Shown: in pieces, positions 6,374-6,967 of the stretch
Numbering within the stretch: the stretch's first letter is position 1
How the letters are laid out: each line of letters starts with the position of its first letter
From: Escherichia coli
GTDB lineage: Bacteria > Pseudomonadota > Gammaproteobacteria > Enterobacterales > Enterobacteriaceae
Assembly (NCBI RefSeq): GCF_030013595.1
Contig: NZ_CP122768.1
Length of the DNA stretch: 64,000 bases
Reading direction: 5' to 3' (one strand)
Position numbers and translations under genes: made by a program
Notes under the pieces: generated by a model
Database searches by the model: none
What the model was told of the DNA's origin: nothing
What the model saw: only the letters and a program-made list of their open reading frames with translations

Positions 6374-6967
6374 TTGCAAAAGACTTTTCATATGCAGCGT
6401 CGAGAAATAAAGAAAATTACTTATTTAATCACTTTGATTTTAACTACTCTTTTGTTTGTTTATTTTTTAAGAACACCCACCACAATCAATATGAAACAGG
6501 CGCATAAAATAAATCAACAACACCAGACAATTTTCCTTATCCGTCACGGTGAACGATGTGACAGAAGCAAAAATGCATGTCTCTCAAGCAATAAAGGAAT
6601 TACCGTCAATGGTGCCATTAAAGCTCATGATTATGGAAAAATATTTAGCAATACTTTCCCGTCATTCAGCCTTTACTCCACGGATACCATACGGACAATG
6701 CAGACAGCCTGTTTTTTCTCTGGAGGAAAAGCAGCCTCCCGGATACCGTTGGCTGCAACATGCGGACTTGATGCTGCAAAGGACATACTCAAATTGTCAT
6801 CCGATAATAAAACTACCGTTATATTCACCCATAATCATTGCCTGACACAAATAGCAAAAAAAATGAAATGGTGGAAGTTAAAGCCAGAATATCTTGAAAC
6901 ACTGGTTCTTCATATCGAAAACAATCGTCTCATTCTTGACGGAAAACTGACTCACGATAAAGCGTAA
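6374..6967 (+). CDS. Secreted histidine phosphatase, Ais/PmrG-like (moron at the lambda bor position)
   Basis: Hydrophobic N-terminus, then [26 protein letters not shown] ... [14 protein letters not shown], matching the RHGE catalytic motif and overall pattern of Ais. AT-rich, opposite strand to flanking late genes. Start ambiguous (6374, 6392 or 6491). Confidence 0.7.
   Translation: [197 protein letters not shown]

Follow-up and report, generated by a model that had tools for sequence, protein, structure and literature searches.

A prophage-borne phosphatase of the Ais/PmrG family in the bor-type slot of an Escherichia coli prophage, with a predicted PmrA-type promoter

The locus and its gene

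The stretch of DNA analysed here, referred to as the window, comprises 64,000 nucleotides (nt) of Escherichia coli contig NZ_CP122768.1 (assembly GCF_030013595.1) and includes a prophage in which a gene for a phosphatase of the Ais/PmrG family lies between the lysis genes and the packaging genes. An earlier reading of the letters alone, hereafter the original prediction, had placed this gene at 6374-6967 on the plus strand and described its product as a secreted histidine phosphatase of the lipopolysaccharide (LPS) core, encoded where phage lambda carries bor. The open reading frame (ORF) is indeed present and intact at 6374-6967, with 197 codons from a TTG, and its translation contains the motifs quoted at the time, RHGERCDRS and THNHCL. 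The start has to be moved. The true start is almost certainly the ATG at 6392 rather than the TTG at 6374, since the homologues all align from this ATG and have in common a Shine-Dalgarno-like AAGGA/AAAGA, conserved 8-13 nt 5' of the start; the coding sequence is then 6392-6967 (plus strand), 191 amino acids (aa) plus a stop codon. In RefSeq, the gene of WP_001189672.1 is 99.8% identical and begins at the equivalent ATG. That 6392-6967 is not a chance ORF follows from its score against the family model NF011945, its BLASTP match to K-12 Ais (both given below) and the ratio of nonsynonymous to synonymous substitution rates (dN/dS), which is 0.19-0.37 among phage alleles whose lineages have diverged to synonymous saturation and which indicates purifying selection on the phage gene.

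The packaging genes lie upstream of the phosphatase gene on the minus strand, with the large terminase at 3363-5465 and the small terminase subunit at 5465-5995 (phrog_141, E = 1.5e-74). Between the phosphatase gene and the terminase, GGGCGGGAGCGTCGCGG...GCTAGTTTTTGAAATTTTATCCG aligns with the left end of lambda, and a lambda-like cosN, GGGCGGGAGCGT (6134-6145, minus strand), followed by cosB-like sequence, is recognised by alignment to the lambda left end GGGCGGCGACCTCGCGG...GCTATTTATGAAAATTTTCCGG. With this cos site 250 nt from its start codon, the phosphatase gene lies at the right-hand end of the packaged chromosome. On the other side, also on the minus strand, are an M15 endolysin (7039-7422, phrog_465) and two holins (7419-7694, phrog_217; 7684-8076, phrog_198), so that the phosphatase gene is convergent with the endolysin gene, the last of the lysis genes. 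In lambda, the ORF of the 97-aa Bor follows Rz in the same position and orientation, and the bor-like location originally proposed, on the opposite strand with the lysis genes to one side and cos/terminase to the other, holds. Bor and the window phosphatase gave no BLASTP alignment at E <= 100.

Base composition and flanking signals set the gene apart from its surroundings. The GC content of the gene is 0.30-0.40, and that of its flanks about 0.55. At 7002-7036 on the plus strand, folding predicts an intrinsic terminator, in which a hairpin AACCCCG...CGGGGTT (7002-7029) is followed by TTGTATT; the 86-nt stretch holding the hairpin (6960-7045) folds at -19 kcal/mol, with z = -2.7 against shuffles. 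The terminator would work on the plus strand only, as no U-run follows the hairpin on the minus strand. A generic terminator scanner found no terminator at 7002-7036, the loop or inner stem exceeding what its rule allows. Of the first 25 kb of the window, 79% is shared by Ecol_224, the single sister prophage that was examined, whose lysis cassette differs and whose slot holds a 58-aa hypothetical ORF instead of the phosphatase gene. With a promoter-like box and -10 element (described below), a terminator, low GC content, insertion between phage genes and absence from Ecol_224, the gene is, by its sequence features, a self-contained phage moron that has its own putative promoter and terminator and is predicted to be transcribed against the late operon.

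No Rz/Rz1 spanin gene is found in the window lysis cassette (7039-8076, minus strand) before the phosphatase gene. In the related viral contig L013, the same endolysin is followed by an Rz-like gene (6571-7038), and the spanin may have been lost on arrival of this version of the moron.

Family, fold and N-terminus

The window protein scores 205 bits against NCBIfam NF011945 (LPS core heptose(II)-phosphate phosphatase subfamily, PRK15416, Ais/PmrG), for which the curated cut-off is 142; K-12 Ais reaches 392, a PmrG-like protein 335, TraG of IncI1 plasmids 293 and a copy on the Citrobacter rodentium plasmid pCROD1 257. By BLASTP, it shares 45% identity with K-12 Ais (b2252) over 160 residues (E = 7e-47). 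Together with the invariant motifs described next, these matches bear out the assignment to Ais/PmrG-like phosphatases, and the homology comparison suggested with the original prediction gave Ais/PmrG-family proteins, not SixA, as the closest relatives. The 'PmrG' equivalog model NF052369, which the window protein fails (112 bits, threshold 170), was dropped as a discriminator, K-12 Ais (146) and a Salmonella-like PmrG (140) failing it too. No PHROG (v4) profile matches the window phosphatase.

In an alignment of 18 family members of phage, plasmid and chromosomal origin, 29 columns are invariant, including R51, H52, E54, R55, C56, D57, R58, G69-I70-T71, R101, Q104, H147, N148, H149, C150 and L151. 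The sequence RHGERCDRS (6542-6568, plus strand; codons 51-59) combines the catalytic RHG histidine motif with a family-specific ERCDRS loop, in which R51, H52 and E54-R58 are invariant, and THNHCL (6827-6844, plus strand; codons 146-151) forms the region of the second catalytic histidine, invariant from H147 to L151. The residues that define branch 1 of PF00300 are therefore in place: the RHG motif is R51-H52-G53, with R51 and H52 invariant in the 18 relatives, and the second arginine and C-terminal histidine are represented by the invariant R58, R101 and H147/H149. We infer that H147 or H149 acts as the proton donor.

An AlphaFold2 model built on the same alignment has a predicted local distance difference test (pLDDT) score of 91 and a predicted template modelling (pTM) score of 0.84, and consists of a helix over residues 2-27 and then an alpha/beta domain. 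In a Foldseek comparison with the PDB, the top matches were all histidine phosphatases with a probability of 1.00 (phosphoserine phosphatase, the C-terminal domain of MutT1, SixA and PGAM5). A sequence search of the PDB at E <= 1 matched no chain, SixA included, so the link to solved structures is one of fold comparison. Profile, residues and modelled fold together show the predicted phage protein to be a histidine phosphatase of the Ais/PmrG family with intact catalytic motifs.

The N-terminus contains four lysine or arginine residues and then an 18-residue uncharged hydrophobic stretch (residues 9-26; 6416-6469, plus strand), which is predicted to be an N-in signal-anchor or an export signal and lies in the helix of the AlphaFold2 model. 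A hydrophobic N-terminal signal or anchor had been proposed from the start, and these features agree with it. No AXA-type cleavage site follows the stretch by a crude, simple-rule heuristic; by the same crude rule, K-12 Ais has a 16-residue hydrophobic region (h-region) followed by THA|AW and AWS|SN. With topology assigned from the positive-inside rule, the N-terminus is likely an uncleaved N-in signal-anchor that leaves the catalytic domain facing the periplasm. Of the term 'secreted', the export or anchor segment stands, and because no AXA-type site is present, 'membrane-anchored, facing the periplasm' would be the better description.

A conserved, putative PmrA-type promoter

The published PmrA box consists of a half-site CTTAAG, 5 bp, and a second half-site XTTAAT (PMC3973317), and in the pbgP promoter the first half-site is overlapped by the -35 element (PMC4660055). 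Upstream of the phosphatase gene and pointing to it, a PmrA/BasR-box-like direct repeat, GTTAAG-ATTTT-CTTAAT (6323-6339, plus strand), agrees with this box at 10 of the 11 specified positions. A putative -10 hexamer, TATATT (6350-6355, plus strand), begins exactly 10 nt after the box, and the ATG lies 52 nt past the end of the box. Twelve distinct phage-borne upstream sequences were read, and every one of them keeps the arrangement of box, 10 nt and -10 hexamer, with the box beginning 64-71 nt ahead of the ATG, while the rest of the upstream DNA cannot be aligned. The same geometry, with a -10-like hexamer, is found upstream of K-12 arnB and eptA, which are known PmrA/BasR targets.

The -10 hexamers of the phage variants have the form xATAAT (TATAAT, CATAAT or AATAAT). 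In locus L027, the box GTTAAGATTTCCTTAAT and the 10-nt spacer ATTTACAAAA are followed by CATAAT. The Shiga toxin (Stx) 1 phage GER2 and a prophage of an O104:H4 strain have the box CTTAAGGATTACATAAG, the spacer ATTTACGCAT and AATAAT; L034 has the same box, CTTAAGGATTACATAAG, with the spacer ATTTACAAAC and AATAAT; and L009 has CTTAAGGATTCCTTAAG, AATTGCCATA and AATAAT. In L036 and L037, the box is CTTAAGG(T/A)GCATTTAAG, the spacer GATTTCCGTG and the hexamer TATAAT. The corresponding promoter of a copy on IncF plasmids reads ATTAAGCGTTATTTAAG. No PmrA box was found upstream of the copies in fimbrial operons or of the clade member P0022. In the K-12 ais-arnB intergenic region, the sole box is about 200 nt from ais and points to arnB.

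A generic sigma-70 scan returned no -35/-10 pair at the promoter region of the phosphatase gene, as expected of an activator-dependent promoter. On this footing, the promoter of the phage gene is predicted to be a target of PmrA (BasR), with an architecture conserved in all phage copies examined; expression in the lysogen would then be conditional and PmrAB-dependent rather than constitutive.

Across the whole window, the strict box pattern occurs 5 times, against 0.55 expected. At 8294-8310, a PmrA-box-like palindrome, CTTAATACGTGATTAAT, precedes a terminator, not a -10 element, and is probably a chance match or the site of another protein. Box-like sites at 25416 and 39905 adjoin unrelated genes (integrase/yjjG and a GntR-type regulator, respectively).

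Relatives and distribution

The family is small: 192 clusters (50% identity) were retrieved at E <= 0.001 among 1.84 billion representatives, and 20 at E <= 1e-30. A megablast search with 6200-7040 found the same DNA in 28 of 5426 complete E. coli genomes, at 99.6-99.8% identity among the matches listed; hosts of the window type are mostly porcine enterotoxigenic E. coli (ETEC), and some genomes have up to three copies. The INPHARED phage set holds a single record, GER2, with 61% identity, and IMG/VR has 20 loci with the phage phosphatase gene. The GER2-type allele is present in 43 of the 5426 genomes, including the stx-less 933W-like prophage of O104:H4 strain 2011C-3493, and the GER2-type protein cluster is on at least 1000 contigs. 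In GER2 itself (L003 7887-8501, MG710528), the gene is an intact ORF of 204 codons, or 193 aa from the second ATG, and is annotated as a 90-aa fragment (8229-8501).

Small as it is, the family is highly mobile, and plasmids carry relatives as well. Of plasmid records, 24 have a 61-62% identical copy; those listed are large plasmids of the IncF type, and in the one examined the copy lies between insertion sequence (IS) elements. About 1400 records of IncI1-type plasmids have a 43%-identical 'TraG predicted phosphatase'. An AfrB/PefC-type fimbrial operon on pCROD1, and on some E. coli contigs, ends in a related copy (54% by tblastn), which follows an EAL gene. In a neighbour-joining tree of the catalytic domain, which carries no support values, the phage, IncF and fimbrial copies form one clade apart from chromosomal Ais/PmrG and IncI1 TraG. 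Orthology with ais would call for a chromosomal locus divergent from arnB/pbgP, and what is found is a prophage locus between endolysin and cos and a separate clade. Chromosomal ais is present in 5412 of the 5426 E. coli genomes, which makes the phage gene an additional paralogue rather than a substitute.

Wherever a phage locus was inspected (among the 20 IMG/VR loci, in GER2 and O104:H4, and in further contigs), the gene runs opposite to its neighbours and separates the final lysis gene from the genes for packaging. The adjoining lysis gene is of four kinds, namely M15 endolysin, GH108-type endolysin, Rz spanin and an unannotated ORF after Rz, and at least five packaging types border the slot: small terminases phrog_141, 57 and 370, ParB/TAGT/Terminase_2, HNH/Terminase_4 and lambda Nu1/GpA.

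Truncated forms exist beside intact ones (L010 2530-3101, 160 aa; L025 6001-6560, 144 aa; P0011 from UMNF18, 150 aa). When P0005-P0007 are compared with P0003/P0004, the P0005 lineage matches the window/P0003 lineage exactly over its last ~45 residues and at only ~60% identity elsewhere, which points to recombination inside the phosphatase gene of the P0005 lineage. The clade member P0022 (L032 3571-4227, L033 988-1644) adjoins a gene for a DsbA-like thioredoxin and IS elements, a neighbourhood that may be relevant in view of the cysteines conserved in the family.

Comparison with known systems

The phage protein has in common with chromosomal Ais (b2252) and Salmonella PmrG the NF011945 match, the invariant motifs, the histidine-phosphatase fold, a predicted N-terminal export segment and a putative PmrA-box-type promoter. 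It differs from them in being encoded by a prophage, in a separate clade and with no arn neighbourhood. Moreover, phage copies have an h-region of 18-19 residues and no AXA site, whereas the Ais signal looks cleavable, and the phage box occupies the -35 position itself, some 50 nt ahead of the ATG, whereas that of K-12 is ~200 nt from ais and oriented towards arnB.

The bor and lom genes of lambda are lysogenic-conversion morons expressed from the prophage. The phosphatase gene resembles bor in slot and orientation (after the last lysis gene, convergent, before cos/Nu1), in apparently being its own transcription unit and in having a product predicted to be directed to the envelope. There is no sequence similarity between the products; Bor is a 97-aa lipoprotein, whereas the phage phosphatase is a 191-aa enzyme whose promoter apparently depends on a host two-component regulator. 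Prophages also remodel the O-antigen of their lysogens by adding groups, as in glucosylation by gtrABC and acetylation by Oac. The concept of a prophage remodelling LPS is the same; the phage phosphatase would instead remove phosphate from the inner core.

TraG of IncI1 plasmids (R64-type) is likewise borne by a mobile element and belongs to the same family (NF011945 293 bits, about 43% identity), but it falls in a different clade and is embedded in a tra operon without a PmrA promoter of its own. In the searched literature, the only plasmid mention is a row for IncI1 TraG in a Tn-seq table, where the gene appears dispensable for transfer (PMC4288162). The Ais-like genes of fimbrial operons (pCROD1 ROD_RS27185) belong to the mobile-element clade of the phage copies, have 48-50% identity over the full length and 56-58% in the catalytic domain, and also have an N-terminal hydrophobic anchor. 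Unlike the phage gene, they are co-directional with usher, chaperone and EAL genes and have no PmrA box upstream.

Proposed function and alternatives

The phosphate on heptose II of the LPS core is added by WaaY, and it is this phosphate that Salmonella PmrG removes. PmrG, which is PmrA-activated, takes phosphate off heptose II (PMC8129183; PMC4312571), and dephosphorylation of heptose II is known for Salmonella PmrG only, as cited in the same two papers. The reading we favour, with a probability of roughly 60%, is that the window gene is a lysogenic-conversion moron wired into the PmrAB regulon and encoding an exported core phosphatase of the Ais/PmrG family. Within this proposal, we infer the topology of export, binding by PmrA, the substrate and the phenotype. 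When PmrAB/BasSR of the host is active (Fe3+, Al3+, mild acid), the lysogen would make the membrane-anchored phosphatase, and otherwise it would not. By homology, the periplasm-facing catalytic domain would strip phosphate from the LPS inner core, acting as a second, diverged core phosphatase beside the chromosomal one. The outer-membrane core would be remodelled and become less negative, which may make the lysogen better able to withstand metal or cationic-peptide stress, or alter how other phages and plasmids recognise the core. By analogy with lambda, late transcription antiterminated by Q would run antisense through the gene in lytic growth; this and the PmrAB control would confine the action of the enzyme to the lysogen.

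Several observations weigh against this proposal. The phage proteins have the bottom NF011945 scores of the seven family members scored (window 205, K-12 Ais 392), and Pfam His_Phos_1 (PF00300) alone matches weakly (E = 0.0034); with 45% identity, that lowest score and a clade apart from chromosomal Ais, the statement of the original prediction that the protein closely resembles Ais was too strong. The clade that holds the phage copies excludes the only characterised members, so the substrate could differ. Lysogens already carry chromosomal ais, so that a benefit of a second copy is not obvious. The promoter is AT-rich, and the window sequence alone gives a box-like match there in ~2% of shuffles. 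Mononucleotide shuffles of each upstream region gave P = 0.003-0.02 for a match of at least 9/10 at -78 to -60, but these probabilities cannot be multiplied, because the promoters are homologous and not independent, and the argument is that of a phylogenetic footprint. In a PmrA-constitutive E. coli strain, deletion of pmrG had no effect on polymyxin resistance (PMC8129183). Literature searches found no enzymatic, binding or expression data for any phage copy.

The same fold, export and PmrA control could serve another substrate and provide an activity that chromosomal Ais lacks. Candidates are the heptose(I) phosphate or pyrophosphoethanolamine, the 1-diphosphate or 4'-phosphate of lipid A, undecaprenyl pyrophosphate and a periplasmic phosphoprotein. 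Such a shift is possible, though on balance unlikely. It would suit the position of the mobile-element clade apart from both Ais/PmrG and IncI1 TraG, the modest identity and low NF011945 score, the replacement of a cleavable signal by an anchor with a conserved R/K-T-P motif after the helix, and the presence of ais in nearly all hosts, which makes a redundant activity harder to rationalise. The family-specific motifs (ERCDRS, GIT, R..Q.A, THNHCL, Y..L..H), however, are invariant between clades and argue for the same binding pocket, and retained putative PmrA control suits a role alongside PmrA-driven LPS modifications. A cytoplasmic phosphohistidine phosphatase of the SixA type, acting on host signalling proteins, is the least credible of the alternatives. 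One of the structural matches is to SixA (1ujb, with a TM-score of 0.70 when normalised to the target), but the top sequence relatives are all of the Ais/PmrG family, no PDB chain is matched by sequence, the lysine/arginine-rich segment and hydrophobic helix fall outside the structural match to the 156-residue SixA, and the conserved cysteines C56, C63 and C150 would fit a periplasmic protein. The original prediction was to be given up should the best homologues be cytoplasmic SixA-type enzymes lacking a signal; the relatives found are of the Ais/PmrG family, and the protein has an N-terminal export or anchor segment.

It is improbable that the protein is a transcriptional co-activator of fimbrial genes similar to AfrS. 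This idea comes from the truncated UMNF18 allele P0011, deposited as 'transcriptional activator AfrS', and draws on the relatives with 48-50% identity downstream of usher, chaperone and EAL genes (pCROD1, E. coli contigs) and on an AraC-family regulator 2 kb away in the window prophage. Against these stand a membrane helix, an intact invariant phosphatase active site and the lack of a DNA-binding domain; the link is one depositor's unverified label, and any fimbrial effect could be indirect, through a change of the envelope. The AraC-family neighbour was set aside as an AfrR/AfrS-like partner, being YdeO/GadX-like and absent from those gene tables and ORF lists that were read, for GER2, O104:H4 and other phage loci. 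Nor does a decaying or neutral passenger, carried with the lysis module and functionless in the lysogen, account well for the data, and this explanation is considered highly improbable. The truncated alleles (L010, L025, P0011), the rarity of the window type (28 of 5426 complete genomes) and the different small ORF in the slot of Ecol_224, the only sister prophage examined, would be compatible with it. However, dN/dS is 0.19-0.37 despite synonymous saturation, no catalytic residue varies, conservation extends to promoter and terminator, and the same slot is kept across otherwise mosaic phages.

Other features of the window prophage

A tRNA-Gly (UCC) gene lies at 8535-8609 (minus strand), between the AraC-family gene and the holins, with a terminator-like hairpin further downstream (~8255-8270). 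The AraC-family regulator itself (9027-9878, minus strand) is AT-rich and YdeO/GadX-like, with 143 bits against NF007407 (cut-off 348) and matches to phrog_1450. Just downstream of Q, on the opposite strand, is a very AT-rich two-gene unit (10275-11435, plus strand) encoding a 237-aa protein (phrog_7651) and a 147-aa hydrophobic protein (phrog_8552), neither of which has a match in PADLOC. The closest RefSeq prophage, RM10740, has an ompC porin gene downstream of Q where the window has this unit. Co-carriage of ompC with the phosphatase gene was considered and dropped for want of linkage, as the window has two genes of unknown function there instead.

In the early region of the prophage, a C4 antisense RNA (RF01695, 83.6 bits) lies beside isrK (RF01394, 67 bits) at 17145-17333 (minus strand), which suggests an antirepressor switch of the P1/P7 type under antisense control. 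The prophage integrase adjoins chromosomal yjjG and rimI; three tandem tRNA-Leu (CAG) genes are present too, and the SymR antitoxin RNA is on the chromosomal side; the features of this integrase/yjjG/rimI, tRNA-Leu and SymR region are at 23983-25206 (minus), 25591-26729 (minus), 28445-28767 (plus) and 54917-54993 (minus).

Significance

The identity of the protein is not new, the gene being auto-annotated in GenBank, and novelty is limited in that both the protein family and the regulator are already known. What goes beyond annotation is first and foremost the conserved promoter of PmrA type, and then the mobile-element clade, the conserved slot that corresponds to bor and the apparent signal-anchor. 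Literature searches with phage or prophage together with pmrG or ais, and with the RefSeq protein and locus identifiers, found no paper on a phage-borne ais/pmrG, and neither removal of inner-core phosphate by a phage enzyme nor a moron with a conserved PmrA-dependent promoter is described in the searched literature.

A broader view, offered tentatively and itself rather doubtful, is that Ais-like core phosphatases make up a dedicated toolkit of mobile elements, with a member in each of lambdoid phages, phages of the Stx type, plasmids of the IncF and IncI1 groups and fimbrial islands, and that the phage copies captured the PmrAB regulon by way of their conserved promoter. Their role would be the editing of inner-core phosphates to control docking, not simply the duplication of host metal resistance. 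If so, the enzyme would exclude core-dependent phages, avoid loss of progeny on debris, or modulate conjugative pili that bind LPS. Core phosphates set surface charge and cation cross-bridging, affect the binding of Fe3+, Al3+ and cationic peptides, and are part of the receptor of many phages. As the window type occurs mainly in porcine ETEC and the GER2 type in Stx-type prophages, one of them in the O104:H4 outbreak strain, a conditional change of the bacterial surface of this kind would bear on colonisation and on phage therapy.

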